Below, piece by piece: positions 8,765 through 50,800 of a stretch of 64,000 nt of DNA. Below the pieces are notes generated by a model. The model had not been told where the DNA came from, did no database searches, and worked only from the letters and a program-made list of their open reading frames with translations. Source of the DNA: Scyliorhinus canicula (lineage: Eukaryota); contig NC_052152.1 of assembly GCF_902713615.1 (NCBI RefSeq), positions 28,557,810 to 28,621,809 of the forward strand. Reading direction: 5' to 3'. The position numbers and the translations under genes were made by a program. The stretch's first letter is position 1, and the number at the start of each line of letters is the position of its first letter.

Positions 8765-11700
8765 ATAATCGCTTATTGTCACGAGTAGGCTTCAATGAAG
8801 TTACTGTGAAAAGCCCCTTGTCGCCACATTCCGGCGCCTGTCCAGGGAGACCAGTATGGGAATTGAACCCGTGCTGCAGGTTTTGTTCTGCATTACAAGG
8901 CAGCTGTTTAGACCACTGTGCTAAACCAACCCTACTACTGCCTCTGGCAGCCTGTTCCAGACACTCACCTCCCTGTGTATAGTACAAAATGCCCCTCTGG
9001 ACCCTTTTGTATCTCTCCCCTCTCACCCTAAACCTATGCCCTCTAATTTTAGACTCCCCTATCTTTGGGAAAAGATGTTAACTATCGACCTTATCTATGC
9101 CCCTCATTATTTTATAGACCTTTATAAGATCACTCCTAAGCCTCCAGGGAAAAATGTCCCTGTTGATCATTATTTTACTATCATTTGAATTGATTATTAA
9201 TATGGCGGTACCTCTTTTGTATTTGTTTTTCATGTGCGTCCTCAACTGCTCTGCACTTCTGCTGCTAAATCTGGCTTGACTCCTTAGATATGCCTGCAGC
9301 CTCCCATTGTGCCACTCTTGTAACCTTTTATCCCAGTACATCAACTGGGGGCTAGTCTTACCAATCCTCCCACTTTTAAAAAAAAAATTTTTAATAAACA
9401 TTTTATTGAGGTTTTTTTTGATTTTACAACAACAACAACGGTGCCACCCTTGTTTTTAGCACCGTGGACATGACGTCTGCAAACCCCTGCCAGAATCCCC
9501 TGAGCTTTGGGCATGTCCAAAACATGTGGACATGGTTTGCTGGCCCCCCTGCACACCTTGCATACCTATCTTCTACACCAAAGAACCTGCTCATCCGGGC
9601 CACTGTCATGTGAGCCCGGTGAACGACCTTGAACTGTATCAGGCTGAGCCTGAAGCATGTTGTGGAGGGGTTGACTCTACTCAACGCCTCCGCCCAGAGA
9701 CCATCCTCTATCTCTCCTCCTAACTCCTCCTCCAACCTGTGCTTCAGCTCCTCAGTCTGCCTGTCCTCTGATCCCATGAGCTTCTTATAGATGTCAGAGA
9801 CCTTCCCTTCTCCCACCCACACTCTGGAAACTACCCTATCCTGAATCTCCCTTGGTGGTAGGAGCGGGAAGGTTGAGACCTGCCTGCGTAGGAGGTCCTG
9901 CACCTGAAGGGACCTAAATTTGAAGGTACCTCGCCAATCCAAATTTCTCCTCCAGCTCCCTCAAGCTAGGAAAGCTCCCTTCTATAAACATATTCCCCAT
10001 CCTCTCAATTCCTGCCTTCTGCATCTCCGAACCCCCCCTCCCCCATCCCGCCCATCCTTCCCAGGGAAAACCAGTGGTTATTGCAGATTGGAGACCAGAC
10101 CGATGCTCCCTCTGCTCCCACATGCCTCCTCCATTGCCCCCAGACTCTCAGGGCTGCCACCACCATGGGGCTGGTAGAGTACCGGGCTGGCGGGAACGGC
10201 AGAGGCGCCGTTATCAACACACCCAAACTGGTGCCCTTACATGAGGCCGCCTCCATACGCGCCCATGCCGATCTTCCCCCCACCACCCACTTCCTGATCA
10301 TGGCTATATTCGCCGCCCAATAATAGTTACTGAAGTTTGATAGCGCCAGCCCGCCCTCTCCCCGGCTCCGCTCAATCATCCTCCTCTTTACTCGTGGGGT
10401 CTTGCCAGTCCATACAAAGCCCATGATAACTCTGTTAGCCCGTTTAAAAAAGTTCCGCGGAATAAAGATGGAGAGACACTGGAACACAAACAGGAATCTC
10501 GGAAGGACCGTCATCTTCACCGTCTGGACCCTCCGAGCTAGTGACAACGGGAGAGCATCCCACCTCCGAAAATCGTCCTTCATTTGGTCCACCAGACGGG
10601 CCAGATTAAGTTTGTGCAACCGTTCCCATTCCCGCGCCACTTGGATGCCTAGATAATGAAAACTTACCCCTACCACTCGAAATGGCAGTTCCCCCAGCCG
10701 TCTCTCCTGTCCCCTTGCTTGGATCGCAAACATCTCACTTTTCCCCGTATTTAGTTTGTAACACGAAAACCAGCCAAATTCCCCCAGAATCCTCATGATT
10801 TCTTCCATCCCCTCCACTTGGTCCGATACATACAGGAGCAGGTCACCTGCGTAAAGTGAGACTCTGTGTTCCACTCCCCCCCCAGACTAACCCCTTCCAG
10901 CCGCTTGAGGTTCTCAGCGCAATTGCCAGCGGCTCTATAGCTAGCGCAAACAACAGTGGGGAGAAGCAGCACCCCTGTCTCATCCCTCGTTGTAGCCCAA
11001 AATAGACCAATGTTGTCCTATTCATCCATACACTAGCCACAGGAGCCTGATACAGCAACCTGACCCCGTCAATAAAGCCCCGCCCAAATCTGAACTGTCC
11101 CAGTACCTCCCACAGATATTCCCATTCTACTCGATCAAAAGCCTTCTCTGCGTCCATTGCGATCATTACCTCCACCTCTCTACCTTCTAGGGGCATCATG
11201 ATCGCATTTAGCAACCTTCTTACATTGGACACCAACTGCCTTTCCTTAACGAACCCCGTCTGGTCCTCCCCAATCATGTCTGGAACACAGTCTTCAATCC
11301 TAGAGGACAAAATTGTGGCCAACAGTTTGGCGTCCACATTCAGTCGGGATATCGGCCTGTAGGACGCACACAGCTCCGGGTCCTTATCCTGATTCAGAAT
11401 GTGGCGGTATCCATCTATATTAAAGGCTGATCAGAACTGATTTTACATTAAATCATATATTCACTTTATATTAAAAACTGATCAGAGCTGATGCTATATT
11501 AAATCATGTATTTAGCCCTATATTAAAAACTGATGACTGATGAAGTCAATGTAAACCATTCCTTATCGCAATAATGTTTTTAATATGTATTACAGACATT
11601 ATCTTGTAAGAGTCCAGATGCAGTGAACTCATTAAGTCTTGTGGCCTTGTCTGGAAATAAGCTCTGCCAACTAAGGGAGGATATCACTTGTACAGTGGCC

Positions 11701-11804
11701 TTGTCACTATGGCTTGGCAAAAGACCCTGGCAAGAAGAGAGGCTGGTGATATTCTGGAGATAGCTACCAGAGGTATCAACCTCATATCTAGTGTCTTGTT
11801 AGAC

Positions 11805-12060
11805 TGTGTTGTTCCTCGTGTCTTAATAAAGCTCGTAGTCTCAAAGGTGGAGAAGATGCTTTATTGTGAATTTGTTCTGTCTTCAGAGCTCAACCTATAG
11901 CTACCTCAAATGCTGCCTGTCTGTGTCTGTGTCCTGCTACCAGTTCTCCCTTCCGTGAAGCGTGCCCTCACTTCCTGTCCCTGTGTATTTATAGCTCTCC
12001 CGTGCGCCCTCTAGTGCTTGCTCAGTTGTATTGCATCTACTCAGATCTACAATCACCACA
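11805..12060 (-). mobile_element. Short solo LTR nested in the long LTR
   Basis: Minus strand reads TGTGGTGATT...TATAAA...AATAAA...GAACAACACA; flanked by a 71-bp direct repeat (11734-11804, 12061-12131). Confidence 0.75.
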
Positions 12061-12692
12061 GAAGAGAGGCTGTTGATTTTCTGGAGATAGCTACCGGAGC
12101 TATCAACCTCGTATCTAGTGTCTTGTTAGACCTCCTTAGAAACCAAGGTCTTGTCGACCAAAAGAGAGACTGTTCTTTGTCTCGAAATAACTGGGGAGTC
12201 AAACTCCCTAAGTAAGAAAAGGGTATAAATGTTTAAGCAAAAGCTGCGAAAGTTAGAGTTTCGCTTGAAGAGATGTTTAGGAGATTACTGGGTGTTTAAA
12301 CTGCTATCTGGACTCGTAGAGTTCTGTTCTTGTTTGAGTGTCGAACTCCGAGACTACTAGTCGTTGTAAGTATGAAATGTTTATAGCTTAAGCAATTATG
12401 TAGTTAAGGAGTTCACAGGCTAACTCATCACATATCCTGTAATTGTCAAACTGTATCATTTATCAAAACACTTGTATTGCCCTTTTTTCTTTAAATAAAT
12501 TGCATATATATTTTACCATACAGATCCGTGTCTATTTCAATAAATAAGAGTGACATTTAACTAAGACTCATCATATTCTCACCCTTTGAGGCTATCTGAA
12601 GGGTCACTTGCCCATGCCTGGCTCTCAAGAATTAGAAATATTTAGTCGACGTTAAGGAAAAGATAGCATCTTTCTAAGTCATAGTCTAACCT

Positions 12693-12899
12693 TGATGTGG
12701 AGATGCCGGCGTTGGACTGGGGTGAGCACAGTAAGAAGTCTTACAACACCAGGTTAAAGTCCAACAGGTTTGATTCAAACACGAGCTTTCGGAGCGCAGC
12801 TCCTTCCTCAGGTGAATCTGAGGAAGGAGCAGTGCTCCGAAAGCTCGTGTTTGAATCAAACCTGTTGGACTTTAACCTGGTGTTGTAAGACTTCTTACT
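12693..12899. mobile_element. Penelope-like inverted pseudo-LTR insertion (82-bp-arm palindrome)
   Basis: Arms 12730-12811 and 12818-12899, 2 mismatches, 6-nt loop; 12-bp TSD ATAGTCTAACCT (12681-12692, 12900-12911); carries hammerhead cores. Confidence 0.85.
12780..12814 (-). ncRNA. Minimal type I hammerhead ribozyme motif (Penelope-associated)
   Basis: CAC-CUGAGGA-A-GGAGC(UGC)GCUCC-GAAA-GC-UC^GUG: catalytic core, 5-bp stem II, palindromic mini stem III, CAC/GUG stem I. Confidence 0.65.
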
Positions 12900-15800
12900 A
12901 TAGTCTAACCTGTACACTGAAGGTAGTGAACGCAAGGCACATTGTGTATGCTATAATTAGAACTCCCATATAGTGAGTCTTACTTTAAATATTCACAAGA
13001 CCTTGTCTGGTAGCTTACAACCTCGACTAATCGGGAAGATCTTAGATAGAATCCTCCTCAACTATCACAAGAATCAGCAAGATCGGGGCCTGTGACATTG
13101 TCGGGGGAAGCACCCCTCTCTCCCTTGCCTCATTGAATGTCCTCATCAACATCAGCCCCAATCTCCCAGCGAACTTTTTATAGAACTCCACTGGGTACCC
13201 ATCCGGCCCCGGGGCTTTACCCGACTGCATGGCCTTCAGCCCCTCCGCTGTCTCTTCGATCCCGATCGGGACCCTCAGCCCACTACCAGCCCCCCGTCCA
13301 ACTTCGGGAAATTCAGCCCCCCGAGAAAGTGCCTCATCCCCTCCGGCACCGTAGGGGGTTCCAACCCATACAGCCGACTATAAAACTCTTTAAACGCCTT
13401 ATTCACCCCCTGCTGAGTCTCCAACCAGGTTCTCATCTCCATCCTTTACTTTCCCTGTCTCCTTGGCTGCCTCCCTCTTTCTAAGCTGCTGTGCAAGCAT
13501 TCTGCTGGCCTTCTCTCCATGCTCATAAATTGCCCCCCTCGCCTTTCTCAGCTATTCCACCGCCCTCCCTGTGGTTAACAAGACAAACGCCGCCTGTAGC
13601 CTCCGCCGTTCCCTTAAAAGCCCTGCCTCTGGGGTCTCCGCATAGTATCTCCTTTACCAGTCGGTCCCTCTCTGCCCTGTCTACCTTCTCCCTCTGGGCC
13701 CGTATCGAGATCAGCTACCCTCTGACCACTGCCTTCAATGCCTCCCAGATGACCGCTGCCGAAATTTCCCCCTGTGTCATTGACCTCCAGGTAATTCTGA
13801 ATACATTTCCTCAACTGCCCGCACACCTCCTCGTCCGCTAAAAGCCCCACGTCTAACCTTCAGTGCGTGTGCTGATTACTGTCTTTACTAACCTGCAGGT
13901 CAATCCAGTGTGGGACATGGTCTGAGATTGTGATCGCCGAGTACCCCGTGTCCACAACCCCCGTCAGTAGAGCCCTGCTCAGAATAAAGAAATCAATCCA
14001 GGAGTACACTTTATGCATGTGTGAGTAGAAGGAGAACTCCTTTACTCATGGCTGCCCAAATCTTCATGGGTCCACCCCCCTATCTGCTCCATGAACCCTT
14101 TTAGCTCCTTAGCCATTGCTCGCACCCTGCCCGTTTTTGAGCTTGACTCAACAACAGGGTCAATAACTGTATTGAAGTCCCCTCCCATGACCAGTGTATG
14201 CGAATTCAGGTCCAGTATCTTCCCCAGCATCCTCTTTATTAACTCCACATCATCCCAGTTTGGCGCATATACATTTACTGGTAATACCTGCACCCCCTCC
14301 AATTTCCCACTGACCATAATGTACCTGCCTCCCCCATCCAAAACTATTCTTCCCGCCTCAAACACGACTCGCTTGTTGATCAGGATCGCGACTCCTCTGG
14401 TCTTCAAGTCCAGTCCCGAGTGAAAAACCTGTCGGATCCAACTTTTCCTTAACCTAATCTGGTCAGCTACTCTAAGGTGTGCCTCCGCAGCATTACCATG
14501 TCCGCCTTCAGTTCTCTCAGAAGCACGAACACGCGTGCCTTCTTGACCGGCCCAATGAGCCCTCTTACATTCCAGTGATCAGTCTAGCTGGGGGGCTCAT
14601 CGCCCCCCACCCCCCTTTCGCCAATCAGCCATCTCCTCTCTTGGGCCAATCGCTAGCCCGCACCCCATGCCTCCACCGGCCCACCCCCAGGCAGCCTCCG
14701 CCCCCAACCTCCTCACTGTCCCTCAGCAAAAGTCCCTCCCTCATCAGCAGAACATTCCCCCCCCCCCCCCCCCCCAGTAACAGCACAAAATAAATCAACC
14801 CCTTTGATAAGCCTAACATCTGCTCACCCCCTACTATGCTTCCGTAAGATAGCCCGCCCAGCTATCTTGGTGGCCCTCGTCCCTGGTGCCAGACAATCTC
14901 CCACCTATTGTTCCCTACCCACCCTCCCCCCGCTCATACAAACATATTCAAATGAAAAACAATCCTAACACAATTGTCCGACAGAGATTTAAAAAAAAAC
15001 AAGTTGAACACAAAGAAAAAGATCAACTAAATGATCCAGCATCTGAACAAACATACCTCCATTCCCCAACAGTGCAAATGCAAACTATACCTCACTCAGC
15101 TCTGCAGCTGGCCCCAGATCCATACAGCAGGCATAACAAATAACGTCCGATAGAGCAAGAAACAAGAAACTTTTTGTGAAAAACATAAACACTACAGCAA
15201 AATTCAAAGTTCTCAGTCCGACACTAGTCCTTTCCTTTTCGCAAAGTCCAGCGCTTCCTCAGGCGACTCGAAATAGAAATGTTGTTCCTCGTGTGTTACC
15301 CAGAGGCGGGCCAAATACAACAGCCCGGACTTCACATTTTCCTTGAAAAGGGTCAACCAGATCTGGTTAAACCCCGCTCTTCTCCTGGCCACCTCCGCAC
15401 TCAGGCCTTGATAGATCCGCAGGATATTGTTGTCCCATTTGTGCCTCCATGTCTGCTTGGCCCACAATAAAACGTGCTCCTTATCCAGATATCTGTGGAA
15501 TCTCACCACCATTGCCCTCAGGGAGTCTCCCATTCGGGCTTCCTCGCAAGCGCTCTGTGAGCCCTGTCCACCTCCAAGGGTCGGGGGAATGCCCCATCCC
15601 CCAGCAACTTCCGAACATGGCCGCGATGTATGCCCCAGCGTCCACTCCTTCGGACCCTCCGGGAGCCCAACGATCCTCAAGCTCTGCAGGTGGGACCTGT
15701 TCTCTAGGTCCTTCAAGTTCTCCAGGAGCCTTTTCTGCTGGTCACTCAGCATCCCCACCTCCAACTCCACCGCTGTTTGATGTTAGTCCTGGTCAGCCAG

Positions 15801-16554: not shown

Positions 16555-16930
16555 GTGCTCTCCGGTGCTATGTCTTTTCGTCCGACGTCACTTCGTCCAA
16601 TGACACTTCGTCCACGTCTTTTGGTCCTACGTCTTTTTGTCCGATGATTTTCTTCGTCAAAGACTTTTTGTAACTTGTTATGTCTTTTTGTCCGATGATT
16701 GTTTTTGTCAAAGACTTTTTGTAACTTGACTTTTTGTAAATAGAAATCAAGGTATAATATCTTCTCTAATGCACATAGCAAGGTATAATATGTAATAAAG
16801 GATTTTTATTACCGGTCTCTTTCCTTTAACGAGCCTCGTTTAAGGATAGTTATTATCGTTCTCTTTCCATTAACGAGCCTCGTTAAAGGATAGTTATTAT
16901 CGTTCTCTTTCTTAGTTCGCCCATCCCGAA

Positions 16931-18346
16931 ATGGCAAAGTTCATAGTGTCGACGAAGAGCAAAAGGAAGGTAGCTGATGAAAGTAACTATATCTACGATT
17001 TTCATTCAAGCAGTACAAACCTAGGAAAAGAATACTGGAGATGTGAGAAAAGAAGGCTGTGTTCAGTGCGGATTCACACGGTAACGGAAAACAATGAGCC
17101 AAAAATTATTTATTTTTCTAATGAGCACCTTCATCCAGCTGATGTTGATTCGTTAAATGCTAGAAAAGCAGTTGCAGAAATAAAGCATGAAGCAGTGGAA
17201 AACATAGCAGCAAGTTCGCGTAGCATTCTAGCGGCCAAGTTTACGCAGCTATCAGAAAATACCTGCTCTCAACTACCTAGGTTGCCCGTCGTCTCAAGGA
17301 CTATTCAAAGGTGCCGACAAAAAAATTCTGGATTTCCCGCTAATCCAGCGGCTAGACACGGTTTTGAAATACCTGACGAATATTGTAAACTTGACAATGG
17401 CGAACAGTTTCTGAGATACAATTCGGGTGCCGAGGATCAACAGCGCTTACTAGTATTCGCATCAGAAAGTGCTCTTCAGGATTTAGCATCATATCGTCAT
17501 TGGGCATGTGATGGAACATTCAAGATTGTGCCACAACAGTGGTTTCAACTGTTCTGCATTCATGTACAAGTTAAAGGTAGCAGTTTTCCATGGGTCTTTG
17601 CATTACTGCCGAATAAAAGAAAGCAGACATACAAATTATTTTTTGACCAATTGAAAATTATGCAACCTAATGCAGATCCGATTAATATCATGGCAGATTT
17701 CGAAGTTGCAGTTCAGAAGGCAATTAATTCATCATTCCTTAATTCATCTGTCGTGGCATGTTTGTTTCATTTGAGCCAATCAGTGTTTCGAAAAATTACA
17801 GATTTAGGCCTCAAAGAAAAATACAATACAGACTCTGAATTCTGTCTTAAAATTCGATGTTTTTCAGCATTAGCTTTCCTCCCCGTTGAAGATGTCGAAG
17901 AGGCTTATGAAGATTTAATAGACGGTGAAGAAATACCTGCTGAATTCATCGTTTACTTCAACTTGACTTACATAGGCATTGTGAGAGGACGTGGTGCTAG
18001 ACGAAGGAGAGAAACACCTACATTCCCGACAGCTGTATGGAATGTTAATCAGCGTGTTCTACAAGATCTACCGAGAACAAATAATGCTGCTGAGGGGTTT
18101 CATTCTGTGATAAAGCGTTCGGCGGGTGGAGCTCATTTGAATATTTGGAGGTTAATCAAAACTCTGAAGGAAGAGGAAGGGTTCATAATAGGCAAAAAGG
18201 CTCAAATTCTTCGGGGAGATCAGTCGACTTCATGTACGCGATATAAGAAAATAACTGAACGCCTCAAAAGATTGGTCGCTGAATATGATTCTACAACAAA
18301 AATTGATTTTTTGAGGAATGTTGCATATAATTTGCATCAATTTTAA
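16931..18346 (+). CDS. FLYWCH-MULE DDE transposase, 471 aa, uninterrupted
   Basis: N-terminal FLYWCH-like YWRC..C..H.H; catalytic motifs CDGTF (D), ADFE (D), CLFH (CxxH) and RTNNAAEGFH (E). Confidence 0.92.
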   Translation: MAKFIVSTKSKRKVADESNYIYDFHSSSTNLGKEYWRCEKRRLCSVRIHTVTENNEPKIIYFSNEHLHPADVDSLNARKAVAEIKHEAVENIAASSRSILAAKFTQLSENTCSQLPRLPVVSRTIQRCRQKNSGFPANPAARHGFEIPDEYCKLDNGEQFLRYNSGAEDQQRLLVFASESALQDLASYRHWACDGTFKIVPQQWFQLFCIHVQVKGSSFPWVFALLPNKRKQTYKLFFDQLKIMQPNADPINIMADFEVAVQKAINSSFLNSSVVACLFHLSQSVFRKITDLGLKEKYNTDSEFCLKIRCFSALAFLPVEDVEEAYEDLIDGEEIPAEFIVYFNLTYIGIVRGRGARRRRETPTFPTAVWNVNQRVLQDLPRTNNAAEGFHSVIKRSAGGAHLNIWRLIKTLKEEEGFIIGKKAQILRGDQSTSCTRYKKITERLKRLVAEYDSTTKIDFLRNVAYNLHQF

Positions 18347-18705
18347 GTAATTAGTAAACTTTTAGATTTTTTAACGACATTTTCCAACTGTATTTTCTAA
18401 GTGATATGATATCTTCCGGGAATTTTAAGTAATTAGTAAACTTTTAGATTTTTTAACTACATTTTTCAACTGTATTTTCTAAGTGATATGATATCTTCCG
18501 GGAATTTTAAGTAATTAGTAAACTTTTAGATTTTTAAACTACATTTTGCAACTGTATTTTCTAAGTGATATGATATCTTTCGGGAATTTTAACTTTTAAA
18601 TTTACTTGCTGTATTTTACTTGCATTTTATCAATTAAATTCTCATAGTAAACTTTTAGATTTACTTGCTGTATTTTACTTGCATTTTATCAATTAAATTC
18701 TCATT
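18340..18705 (+). repeat. Subterminal tandem repeats inside the MULE
   Basis: Three 82-bp units (starts 18340, 18422, 18504), then two ~46-bp units; a ~40-bp duplication also at 16826-16911. Confidence 0.9.
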
Positions 18706-18866
18706 GAAGATATTATACCTGGTTTTCTACGGAGTTTATTTGTAATTGGACAAAAAGACGTTGGACCAAAAGACGTGCGGACAAAAAGACGTTGGACCAA
18801 AAGACGTGGACGAAGTGTCGGTGGACGAAGTGACGTTGGATGAAAAGACGCGACACGGTGCTCTCC

Positions 18867-19445: not shown

Positions 19446-19697
19446 CCTGCGGTTATGATGATGGGGGAAAACCTGGAATTATACAAGAACATATTGGACT
19501 TTAAAAAAGACATGAGTTGTATATTTTTTTAATGGACATAGACACCGAAGATGGCCGAGAATGCACAACTAGCTACTGACAGGGATGACTGTAGAGGGTA
19601 TCCCAGCCGGATGGGGTCAAATCAGGGGGTCTAACCCGGATCAGTAACTTTTGGTGAACCCCACCTGGGGCTGGATGGAACAAATTGGGAAGCTCGT

Positions 19698-20778
19698 TGT
19701 AGCCACCGAAGTTGGCCACTTACCGACCCAAAATGGCGTCTTACAAAGGTTGCAGGGAAAACTGGACAATTATAAAGAGACAAGCAGTTTGCAGAAGTTC
19801 ATGTGTATTCTGGCTGCAAAGAAAGCAGACAGCACCGAAACCAGCAGTTTGCATATTAATGAAATGAAATGAATGAAAATCGCTTATTGTCACGAGTAGG
19901 CTTCAAATGAAGTTACTGTGAAAAGCCCCTAGTCGCCACATTCCGGCGCCTGTTTGGGGAGGCTGTTACGGGAATCAAACCGTGCTGCTGGCTTGCCTTG
20001 GTCTGCTTTCAAAGCCAGCGATTTAGCCCTGTGAGCTAAACAGCCCTGGGAACAATGGATACAACGATTAGCTACAATTGGGACATTCTATGGCAGGTCA
20101 GACTTCCTGGTGCCAACGGGGTCTGAAACAAAAGGAAACAAACCAGTTAGGAAGAACCGCCCCGCGATCGAGGGATAGCCTCAGTATTGGGGGATTCGTA
20201 CCAATCGATTGGGATGAGACCCAATCAATTGACAAGAGGATCGGGGTCCGCCCAAAAGGGCGCGAAGTCCCTGGGACCTATAAAAGTCAGGTCCCAAGTC
20301 CAGTTCGCTCTCTTAGCCGGCCCTCCCAGCAGAACACCTTTGCAGCAGCTCTCTAAGAACTTGACCGTGAGAAGGAGAGGCCTGGCCAACAGCTACACCA
20401 ACAAGTAAGTGTCCAACCACCGCACGCTACGAGAATAGACATTCCTGACCCCTTAGCCCGTACGAACTGGGAAGTCTGCAGTCTCAGGACAGAACGAGAG
20501 GCCATTGTTCCCTGATCTAGTGGGTTCCCTTATCGAAGATAAGTATTGGCTTATAGTGGTAGGAATAGTTTAGTCCGTTAGTATTAGTTGCATGAGTATC
20601 AATTTACTGTGTAAATAATAAACGTGTTTGATTGAACCTTACTAACTGGTGTATTGAGTCATTGATCTGAACTTGAACTTGAACCTCGTGGCGGTATCAT
20701 AAGGATACCTGGCGACTCTAGAGCTAAGGAATAAAACAGCCAATTGAGTGTTAAGCACACTCACCAGAACGAGCAACA
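19698..20778 (+). mobile_element. Solo LTR (same family as 40898-41831) with a nested SINE
   Basis: TGTAGCCACCGAAGTTGGCCA...GAACGAGCAACA; TATAAA ~20279, AATAAA ~20616; flanked by a 58-bp direct repeat. Confidence 0.85.
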
Positions 20779-40897: not shown

Positions 40898-41831
40898 TGT
40901 TGCTCGTTCTGGGTGAGTGTGCTTAACACTCAATTTAGCTCTGTTTCGTTACTTAGCTCTGGAGTCGCCAGGTATCGTTAAGATACCGCCACAGGTTTCA
41001 AGGTCAATTTCAAAGCAATAAAACCATACACCAATTAGTAAGTTCAAACAAATGAGTTTATTATAATACAATTATAATACTACCCATGCACACGCTAAGA
41101 TGATTAAACTATTCCTACCACTAAATAAACCAATACTTATCTTAAAGAGAACTGCCGGATCAGGGGACAAGGCCTCTTTCTCTGCACTGGTCCGCAGACT
41201 TCAGGTTGGTACGGGTTAAAAAGGTGTCAAGAGAGTCTATCTCTGGTAGCGACCGTTGTGAGACTTCCTTGCTGGCAGCTGCTGTCCCAAACCTCTCCTC
41301 TCTCTCGGTCAAGGTCTTCTTTGGTAAAAGCTGGTCAAGAGGGCTGGTCCAGAGAGGAGGGCTGGTCAAGAAGAATGAACTAAGTTTAGGACCTGTCTTT
41401 TATAGGTCGCAGGGCTTCGCGCCCTTTTGGGCAGGTTCTCTACCTGCTGGGAATCGATTGGGTCTCTTCCCAGTCGATTGGTTTGAATCCCCCCAATACT
41501 GAGGCTGTCTCTCGGCTACTGGGCGGGCCTTCAGGTGCTTTGTTTTCAAACCCTGCTGGTGCCGGGGTGTCTGGTTTCCCATACACTGTTGCAATCACTT
41601 TCCTATTTGTGTCCATTGTCCCTGGGATCGTTCCATTACTATGTTAACTATCCCGGAGATTGCCTCATGAGTATGCGGAATGTTCGTTTCGGTGCTGTCT
41701 GCTCTCTTAGCAGACAGAATACACATTGACTTGATGCAGCCTGCTTGTGCTGCAAACTTTGTCCATTTTAACCTGCAAGCTTTGCGTTCCTCCATTTTGT
41801 GTTGAGGGAATGGCCAACTTCGGTGGCTACA
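40898..41831 (-). mobile_element. Solo LTR
   Basis: TGTTGCTCGTTCTG...GGTGGCTACA; 4-bp TSD TGAG; reverse-complement homolog of 19698-20778. Confidence 0.9.
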
Positions 41832-47891: not shown

Positions 47892-50800
47892 TGTAGTAAT
47901 CCACGGGAGGCAGGAGTTCCGTCACCACACCAATATTTATTTACAATAACGATATTACAGGAGCAGCTACAAACAGTGCTGCTGGCAGTCCAGTCAACTT
48001 AAGACTGCTCACAAAGCCTACACAGGTGATTATATGGGCCCTCTCAATGAGCTATCATTGAGGGAGCTCATACTCCAATTGGCCAACCAATAAAGCCAAT
48101 TGGAGGTCATTACACCCCTCCCCCCCAAGGTCCGAGGAATTCCTGTTAGCTGGCATTCCTCGGAGCTTCTTCCTGCTCCTCATGTCTGGGTGTGTCACCT
48201 CTGTGTCGTCCGCTGGGTCGTTCTCCGAAGTGGACGGGGTGTACCTTATAGGTGCCTGTCTTTTCCTTGACGACCTCCTTGGAAGTTGTTCTTCCTCCTC
48301 CTCGGGGAGAGGCGTCACGGCGGTCTCATCGAGTGTGTCCATCTCCGACTCTGATGACTGGATGACGGGGTCTGGAGAAATTGCTCGGGGCTGGGGTGTG
48401 GGTATCCTCTCTGTCTGGGCTATCCCAGCTTGAGGCGGTCCTGCTTCGCCTGCCTCCAGGTGTGATTCCGCTGCCCTTATTTGGTCTAGGTGTTTCTTCA
48501 GCACCTTACCTCCTATTGAAACCTCATAGGATATGGGCCCTGTTTGGGACTCTACCGTGCCTTTGACCCACGTTGGTCCATTCCCATAATTCTTGACCCA
48601 AACCGGTGCCCCCACCTGGAAATGTCTCTGCTGCCGACTATTATCATGCCCCCTGCATTGGGCCTCCTGTTGTTTCTCCACTTTCCCCGTTAAATTTGGG
48701 AAAAGGAGACTCAGCCTCGTTCGCAGCCGCCTTCCCATTAAGAGTTCAGCTGGCGGTATGCCCGTTGTGGAATGCGGTGTGGTCCTGTCAAAACAGCCAG
48801 CGGGAGAGCTTTGTGTCTATTGACGCTGCCGGCTGCTTCTTGAGTCCCGCTTTAAGTGTCTGGACCGCTCTCTCTGCCAGGCCGTTGGTCGCTGGATGGT
48901 AAGGGGCCGTTTTGATGTGACGGACTCCGTTTTCCTTCAGGAATTTTCCAAATTCCCCACTGGTGAATGCCGTTCCGTTGTCCGACACCAATACCTCCGG
49001 AAGTCAATGTGTTGCAAACGAGGCCCTGAGCTTTTCAATTGTCGATGCTGTGCTTGCCGTGTTTACCCGGTGGGCGTCCAACCATTTGGAGTGGGCATCC
49101 ACTATCACCAAAAACATTGAGCCCATGAAAGGGCCGGCGTGGTCAATATGCAGGCGGGTCCACGGTCTGCCTGGCCATTCCCACGGGTGCAATGGCGCCG
49201 CTGGTGGCACTCTTTGCCCCTGTTGGCACTCCTGGCACCGACGTACCAAGGCTGCTATGTCTGTGTCCAAACCTGGCCACCAAACGTAGCTTCGAGCTAG
49301 CATCTTCATTTTAGACACCCCTGAGTGTCCGTGATGTAACTCAGTTAAGATTGCCTGACGGCCCCGAGCTGGGACGATTACCCGGGCTCCCCATAATAGG
49401 ATACCATCTTCTACGGTTATTTGGTCCCTTCTGCTCAAGTATGGGTGCATCTGGGGCTCCACTGGTCTTTCCAGTTCCCCTGTTAGCAGTAAATGCTTCA
49501 TCTTGGCTAAAACTGGGTCTTTTTGCGTCCACAACCGAATATGTTGTGCGTCTACTGGTAGGGTGTCCACAAAATTGAGAGTCATCACTGTCTCCTCTAC
49601 TTTTAGTATTTGCGGCGGAGTGTCCGCGAGGGGAAGTCTGCTCAAAGCATCTGCATGTGCTACTCGCGTTCCCGGTCTGTGCTCCAGAACGTATCTATAT
49701 GCCGCCAGTAGCAACGCCCAGCGTTGGATTCTAGCTGATGCAATCGGGGGTATTGACTTGTCTTCTTTTAATAACCCTAATAACGGCTTATGGTCCGTCA
49801 CTATGGTGAATTTCCGCCCTTACAGATACTGGTGAAATTTTTTTACTGCGAATATCACCGCCAGTCCTTCCTTCTCGATTTGGGGGTACTTCCTCTCAGC
49901 CATCGCCAAGGGCCTCGAAGCATAGGCTATTGGCCGTTCTTCCCCATTCCTTCCTCTATAGGCTAAGACGGCTCCTACCCCATAGGGGGATGCATCACAA
50001 GTGACCACCAACTCCTTCCTTGGGTCATAATGCTCTAGGACATTTTCGGATGACAGCTGTTCCTTAATGTCCCTAAATGTTCGGTTTTGGCGGGTGGACC
50101 ATTTCCATTTTTGCCCCTTTTTTAGTAGCTGGTGGAGGGGTTCTAGGATGAATGCCCTATTTTCAATAAATTTTCCATAATAGGTTACCAACCCTAGAAA
50201 TGATCGTAACGGGGCAGCACGGTGGCCTAGTGGTTAGCACAACCGCCTCACGGCGCTGAGGTCCCAGGTTCGATCCTGGCTCTGGGTCACTGTCTGTGTG
50301 GAGTTTGTACATTCTCCCCGTGTCTGCGTGGGTTTCGCCCCCACAACCCAAAAATGTGCAGAGTAGGTGGATTGGCCACGCTAAATTGCCCCTTAATTGG
50401 AAAAAATAATTGGGTAATCTAAATTTTAAAAAAATTCAATGATCATAACTCCTGGACCGTGGTGGGAGCTGGGGCTTCTTTTATTGCCCTTACTCTGTCT
50501 TCTAATGGATGTAAGCCTGACTCGTCTACTTTATATCCCAGGTACGTCACTTGTGGGGCCAGAAAAACACATTTTTCCCTTTTTAACCGTACACCTGCCT
50601 TTGCGAAACGCCTGAGCACTTCCTCCAGGTTCCTTAAGTGTTCCCTGTTTGTCCTACCCGTGATTAAGACATCGTCCAAATAAATCGCCACCTGGGGTAG
50701 TCCCTGCAGAATATTTTCCATCGTACGCTGGAATATAGCGCAGGCTGATGACACTCCGAAAGGTAGCCTAGTATAATGAAAAAGGCCCTTCAGGGTGTTG

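Follow-up and report, generated by a model that had tools for sequence, protein, structure and literature searches.

A solo LTR with tandem repeats interrupts a LINE

The window, a stretch of 64,000 nucleotides from the genome of Scyliorhinus canicula, holds a solo LTR of a foamy-like endogenous retrovirus (ERV) on its plus strand at 11400-13069. The element opens with TGT at 11400, closes with ACA at 13069 and is framed by identical 4-bp target-site duplications, AGAA, at 11396-11399 and 13070-13073. It breaks a minus-strand LINE, of which the reverse-transcriptase part lies at 10005-11399 and the portion upstream of the break, comprising an ORF1 piece and the start of ORF2 with its endonuclease-like part, lies at 13070-15782, as read from ORF translations. 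We take this LINE to be of L1 type from its motifs. On the plus strand of the LTR, a TATA-like box at 12224-12229 may provide the promoter, and AATAAA at 12494-12499 is the likely poly(A) signal, with a second AATAAA at 12539.

A genome search with the segment 11400-11900 returned at least 47 matches, with 40 of 1681 candidates scored. Most LTR copies examined are solo LTRs of 1.1-1.2 kb, each with its own 4-bp duplication. The combination of TG...CA ends and a short target duplication, which marks a retroviral solo LTR, was found in the window copy and in many others, in keeping with the retroviral LTR proposed in an initial annotation made from the letters of the window. At 1670 bp, against about 1.1-1.2 kb for most copies, the window LTR owes its length to two inserts. 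One is a copy-private insert of 255 bp (11805-12059), flanked by 72-bp duplicates at 11733-11804 and 12060-12131 that are 93% alike; the other is a palindromic repeat in U5 (12693-12899), which is not in the other copies compared and has a flank of about 12 bp duplicated. Five copies at G000:C4, 125.8-126.1 Mb (L020, L023, L024, L027 and L029) share a common upstream flank as segmental duplicates, and in all five a ~36-bp LTR segment that corresponds to 11670-11712 of the window is repeated in a long array.

The window also contains other mobile-element remains. By its SINE types, the host would be a cartilaginous fish. At 16577-18850 lies an AT-rich element that carries tandem repeats at each end, and inside it an open 476-aa ORF on the plus strand (16916-18346) encodes what we take, from its motifs, to resemble a Mutator-type transposase. 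Remnants of a Gypsy-type RT/RNase H and integrase lie on the minus strand at 48836-50233.

The tandem repeat that forms the subject of this study begins 16 bases into the LTR. Tandem Repeats Finder places it at 11415-11534, with a period of 51, 2.3 copies and 82% matches. The motif ATATTAAA starts at 11417, 11468, 11496 and 11520, and its placement at 11417, 11468 and 11520 sets the unit starts at 11416, 11467 and 11519, exactly where the ~51-bp repeats had first been annotated. On the plus strand, unit 1 spans 11416-11466, with 11417-11454 complementary to nt 25-60 of U2 snRNA; unit 2 spans 11467-11518, with 11468-11505 complementary to the same nucleotides; and the partial unit 3, at 11519-11534, retains the portion complementary to U2 stem-loop IIa. 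The repeat has a GC content of 24%, each unit contains two TATATTAAA-type motifs and one CTGATCAG palindrome, and the number of units varies among LTR copies.

U3 enhancers are often amplified in tandem. The location of the repeats at the start of U3, their variable number and their AT-rich, palindromic make-up would accordingly suit DNA enhancer modules, that is, protein-binding sites amplified in tandem, with a likeness to U2 that arose by chance and was sharpened by private mutations. We regard such an origin as a serious possibility, while leaning somewhat against it.

Family assignment and orientation

A full-length locus, through its PBS and purine tract, gave the strand of the solo LTR. 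Behind copy L017 comes a PBS-like sequence, which we take from its motif to be of the lysine type, and a purine tract precedes copy L022, 18 kb away; the two are separated by broken ORFs for protease, RT, integrase, an env-like protein and further ones. A full-length but broken provirus, L071/L072 (G000:C7:145.41-145.43 Mb), into which host repeats have inserted, has an LTR pair that is 93.7% alike, with a PBS behind the 5′ LTR and a purine tract ahead of the 3′ LTR. Among solved structures, the RT piece best matches Peptidase A9/Pr125Pol chains (E 2e-27 to 8e-24; next class 1e-8), and the integrase piece has 8 matches with PFV integrase on top. In Pfam, the match to Foamy_virus_ENV falls below the cut-off (E 0.086), and three ORF pieces behind env have no match. 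Because of the PBS and purine tract together with the foamy-type RT and integrase, we read the plus strand as sense and 11400 as the start of U3; judged by its pol matches, the LTR family is a foamy-like ERV. The original placement of the repeats at the U3 start, in sense orientation, is upheld by the same features.

At least one second foamy-like lineage is present in the genome (L077-L079, L091-L093, also L074, L083, L086 and L088). Its RT pieces are 44-57% identical, and it has a different LTR that lacks the 51-bp repeat.

Contigs from a related organism, assembled in two runs that are presumed to be RNA, span U3 and R of copy L002, with a depth that drops just past the place corresponding to the poly(A) signal and lies at 0-6 in U5. 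A DNA run, unlike these presumed-RNA contigs, covers all bins of the same copy. Five presumed-RNA contigs run into the LTR from the purine-tract side. This coverage fits, but does not prove, transcripts that end in the 3′ LTR. A single raw RNA run contributed 37 reads, spread over both strands, and is uninformative.

Likeness of the repeat to antisense U2

As reference we used the genome's own U2 (L031), which scores 191.8 bits against RF00004. Compared with the reverse complement of its nt 25-60, unit 1 is identical at 29 of 36 positions with one 2-nt insertion, and unit 2 at 28 of 36, with 4 of the differences G-U compatible; alignment to a U2 from the same genome thereby reproduces the antisense match of about 29/36 and 28/36 given in the initial annotation. 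This interval includes what we take to be the branch-point recognition sequence, nt 33-38, and stem-loop IIa.

How far this match exceeds chance depends on the space that is searched. Under three scoring schemes, the observed score is reached by 0-4 of 3000 shuffles of the region or of U2, whereas across the whole window 11, 1 and 5 of 60 trials with a shuffled U2 have a best score that reaches it, and a G-U-aware score is reached in 3 of 25. The match is significant locally and borderline window-wide, so the annotated likeness withstands local shuffling and is left uncertain by the wider control, a borderline result that counts in favour of enhancer modules with a fortuitous U2 resemblance. 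Nor does the likeness register in an Rfam covariance scan, which found no U2 match to RF00004 at E up to 10 in 11000-12200.

Other copies of the LTR are on the whole less U2-like than the window copy. Against its score of 19, 27 of 29 other loci (a sample that includes five segmental duplicates) score lower, one equals it and one reaches 20, with a median of 15; in 11 copies that are more divergent or partial, the scores are 12-16. A family less U2-like than the window copy is one of the outcomes that the initial annotation had named as counting against its own reading, so that this check has in part gone against it. Two features are private to the window copy and occur in none of the 29 other loci: the C of TACA in unit 1, and TTAGCC after unit 2. 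The TTAGCC extension of the match, reported at first for unit 2, is therefore real in this copy and absent from those loci.

These comparisons bear on where the complementarity came from. A retrovirus had been suggested to have captured and multimerised a U2 fragment, a claim that is not borne out: the likeness is antisense and covers only about U2 22-64, and capture followed by decay is unsupported because 27 of 29 other copies score below the window copy and the divergent copies are no closer to U2. We consider it improbable that a piece of a U2 gene or pseudogene entered the LTR in reverse, was duplicated, and then decayed or was reused without U2 pairing. Sources would have been plentiful, with 48 scored matches to U2 genes or copies in this genome, and the likeness may extend to U2 67 in copy L004; yet no U2 sequence lies outside about nt 22-67, and a co-packaged RNA would be expected to yield the sense orientation. 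A precedent for capture exists in the LTRs of Cassandra, Helenus and Ajax, which hold small-RNA-derived sequence (PMC10886601). In the repeats studied here, selection is a likelier source of the complementarity than a captured U2 copy.

Tandem clusters of U2 genes are located at G000:C26, 12.68-13.13 Mb, with a spacing of about 970 bp, and at C20, 74.9-75.1 Mb, with a spacing of 3-4 kb.

Predicted pairing and conservation

The predicted duplex with U2 has an energy of -27.0 kcal/mol for unit 1 and -36.8 kcal/mol for unit 2. Unit 2 of the window forms the strongest predicted duplex among 44 copies; over 33-44 copies the medians are -24.8 (unit 1) and -25.3 kcal/mol (unit 2), and the top U2 likeness of the window copy for this unit is a selection effect. 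When G-U pairs are counted, the number of register positions that pair in most of the 33-44 copies is 31 of 36 for unit 1 and 32 of 36 for unit 2. The predicted pairing is confined to the sense strand (-27 and -37 kcal/mol, versus -12 and -16 kcal/mol for the opposite strand), a bias that argues against enhancer modules.

Competition with the folding of U2 itself gives a mixed picture. If U2 nt 1-70 is allowed to fold, the units gain -14 to -18 kcal/mol versus about -5 kcal/mol for shuffles (0-2 of 300) in a sample made up of the window and three other copies; when the whole U2 is co-folded, the units do no better than shuffles (22-114 of 150). With G-U-aware scoring against U2 18-70, the value for one LTR is equalled by 4-11 of 1500 shuffles and that for 9.6 kb of provirus by 11 of 400, small values that are partly circular because the interval was chosen from this same finding. 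Against full-length U2 the corresponding LTR score is ordinary (207-243 of 500 shuffles). Among the polymorphic positions of unit 2, 4 of 8 keep pairing in both alleles, which is no enrichment.

Folding of the repeats on their own is weak, with -2.8 to -4.7 kcal/mol for 37-nt pieces and -3.4 to -6.6 kcal/mol for whole units, and no long hairpin is formed. These folds make it very improbable that the repeats belong to a polymerase III microRNA cassette such as those described for the LTRs of bovine, simian and feline foamy viruses.

Leaving aside its first 16 bases, the LTR has diverged least in the repeat block. In 16 copies recovered solely through a U5-end query, the repeats show a non-CpG divergence of 5.6%, versus 7.7-11.4% in five other LTR regions. 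The values show constraint on the block, of whichever kind; an enhancer role, from which conservation would equally be expected, fits just as well.

A stronger complement in an unrelated family

In an out-of-sample comparison of full-length U2 with 31 ten-kb pieces, the top score, 20 on U2 24-61 and again antisense, fell in an unrelated family, denoted family B (example L123:9753-9796 on G000:C3; also L101, L103-L122, L081, L237 and L238). Family B is abundant, young and retrovirus-like. It encodes gag, a pol that includes two RNase H-type domains and integrase, and a small ORF whose product has a likely signal peptide and membrane helix; its LTRs are ~950 bp long, and we take it to be possibly lokiretrovirus-like. 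The U2 site is found on the sense strand, past the pol stop and ahead of the small ORF. In the window, too, 40917-41546 and 19697-19797 are diverged remnants (72-76%) of the LTR of family B.

For the family B site the duplex is predicted at -51 kcal/mol, where a perfect antisense would give -58.7 kcal/mol, and 0 of 1000 shuffles attain the -51; the departures from U2 in its paired arms are mostly G-U compatible. Over 310 kb, none of 164 shuffles of U2 22-60 (mean 40.2, sd 2.4) attains its score of 59, and 1 of 64 shuffles of full U2 attains its identity score of 20. Under G-U scoring with full-length U2, the best null scores of 67-98 equal or exceed its 67. Within its own genome, the site pattern has 679 matches versus 0 for a reversed control. 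Between two subfamilies, 3 of 29 arm positions and 5 of 8 positions of the unpaired middle are different, a comparison in which the pattern itself constrains the arms; locus L081 was recovered without the pattern. About 25 bases ahead of an AG, the unpaired middle contains a motif that we take, by the usual consensus, to be branch-point-like, and we infer that this AG, which lies 7 bases beyond the paired stretch, is used as an acceptor.

Relative to family B, the foamy-like LTR addresses the same U2 interval with a weaker match, two to three units and no clear acceptor. Enhancer modules in the LTR would leave unexplained why family B matches this very interval on its sense strand far beyond chance. 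A U2-pairing function, read here from sequence, gains weight from the conservation of the repeat block and from the far stronger complement in family B, and most of this weight lies with family B and not with the stretch first flagged.

Comparable sites were sought in several further sets. LTRs of the second foamy-like lineage (L077/L079, L091) have a best identity score of 11 on either strand, and a 12-kb foamy-type viral record has a best G-U-aware score of 39 and no comparable U2 site. Within 1.5 kb of the integrase end, 30 of 30 gamma/epsilon-type loci, which collapse into 2 clusters, give sense scores of 30-35 and contain no site. A viral collection yielded 44 pattern matches, with best G-U-aware scores of 33-52, which is the null level, and no relative of family B. 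A pattern scan of metagenome sequence gave 2 loci, one containing a real U2 gene of another eukaryote and one having no U2 alignment with a score of at least 15. With longer spacers, the pattern found 3 matches in the shark's own genome, namely one decayed U2 copy and two members of family B, and no third family. In this comparison, the U2 complement is not a general trait of retroviral lineages.

Possible roles in viral RNA processing

Retroviruses need some of their RNA to remain unspliced and polyadenylation to occur only at the 3′ LTR; the known solutions involve U1 or U11 decoys, SR proteins and export factors. As a tentative reading, which we consider nearly an even call, we propose that selection has shaped the 51-bp units into RNA elements that pair with U2, keep U2 snRNP out of register and thereby adjust splicing or 3′-end processing. 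Each unit would be kept by selection to pair with U2 nt 25-60. Because U3 would enter viral RNA only via the 3′ LTR, a transcript would carry two to three units, with U2 snRNP near its 3′ end.

Certain bases of U2 must pair with U6. Pairing with an LTR unit would span the branch-point recognition sequence without a bulged adenosine and would continue into the bases needed for U6, and no clear pyrimidine tract lies behind it; for these reasons a unit may be a non-productive docking site. Such units would likely mark the long unspliced last exon for 3′-end processing or export, or alternatively act as a sink that diverts U2 from viral splice acceptors. The solo copy in the window is probably inert.

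In family B, U2 would sit on two arms about 11 bases out of register, with the likely branch point looped out, and this clamp would weaken the acceptor so that genomic RNA stays unspliced. Taken further, unrelated retroviruses of one host may have independently evolved antisense clamps of 30-40 nt against the 5′ domain of U2, with family B throttling an acceptor and the LTR docking at the 3′ end, a generalization that we hold to be doubtful. If true, it would amount to a base-pairing route of retroviral splicing control, and a long, selected complement to the branch-point recognition region and stem-loop IIa would add to the known solutions of the retroviral problem and offer a natural probe of U2 snRNP held out of register. 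If the LTR repeat is only an enhancer, the family B site remains statistically strong and unexplained, in hundreds of copies.

Comparison with known systems

Foamy-like fish ERVs, small-RNA-derived LTRs, U2-headed SINEs and U2-targeting LINEs are already known. The long retroviral U2 complement appears new within our literature search, which drew mostly on papers outside subscription and, among the titles and abstract openings listed, found no description of such a complement in retroviral RNA, nor of splicing control by this route.

Foamy-like ERVs have been described in fish (PMC5210030), among them ERV-Spuma.0-Sca of a catshark (PMC10699275). The present family resembles them in its best solved-structure matches to foamy-type RT and integrase, its long LTR, its 4-bp target duplication, its presumably lysine-type PBS and its extra ORFs between env and the 3′ LTR. 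As regards U2, the word snRNA is absent from the text of both papers, supplements aside (PMC5210030, PMC10699275).

Among elements with small-RNA-like sequence, the TRIMs Cassandra, Helenus and Ajax carry it in their LTRs (PMC10886601), SINEU elements have U1 or U2 heads, and LINEs that target U2 are also known (PMC4494074). The window element is like the TRIMs and SINEU in being a mobile element with small-RNA-like sequence. Those elements derive from the RNA gene itself, as promoter or 5′ head (PMC10886601, PMC4494074), whereas the window match is short, antisense and situated in an autonomous retrovirus. The window LTR does not fit the small-RNA-derived type of Cassandra, Helenus and Ajax, given that the family has pol and env-region genes, that the match is short and antisense, and that divergent copies are no closer to U2. 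A U2-targeting LINE as the source is rejected because the match sits within the LTR in all copies, never at the insertion site.

Closer functional parallels come from retroviral elements that engage other snRNPs. The RSV NRS binds U1 and U11 through a short 5′-splice-site-like sequence inside the genome (PMC8329584). It shares with the LTR repeat the principle of a retroviral RNA element that controls RNA processing by binding an snRNP non-productively, the binding being predicted in our case; the window element differs as a 36-nt complement to U2 that is tandem and located in U3. In foamy viruses, U1 governs the choice of poly(A) site (PMC3694450), and branch-point masking in the purine-rich C element limits splicing (PMC5294762). 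The likeness lies in snRNP binding or branch-point masking that chooses poly(A) sites and limits splicing, and the difference in the means, since these precedents use U1 pairing or SR proteins whereas the window element would use extended pairing with U2 (PMC3694450, PMC5294762).

U2 snRNP itself acts on intronless histone pre-mRNA, and coupling between U2 snRNP and CPSF operates in 3′-end formation (PMC7452928). The histone element is bound via SF3b and, according to the review, has no branch-point likeness, with base pairing to U2 left open there (PMC7452928). It nonetheless offers a counterpart to the role proposed here for the LTR units, namely one for U2 snRNP outside splicing, in the formation of 3′ ends.
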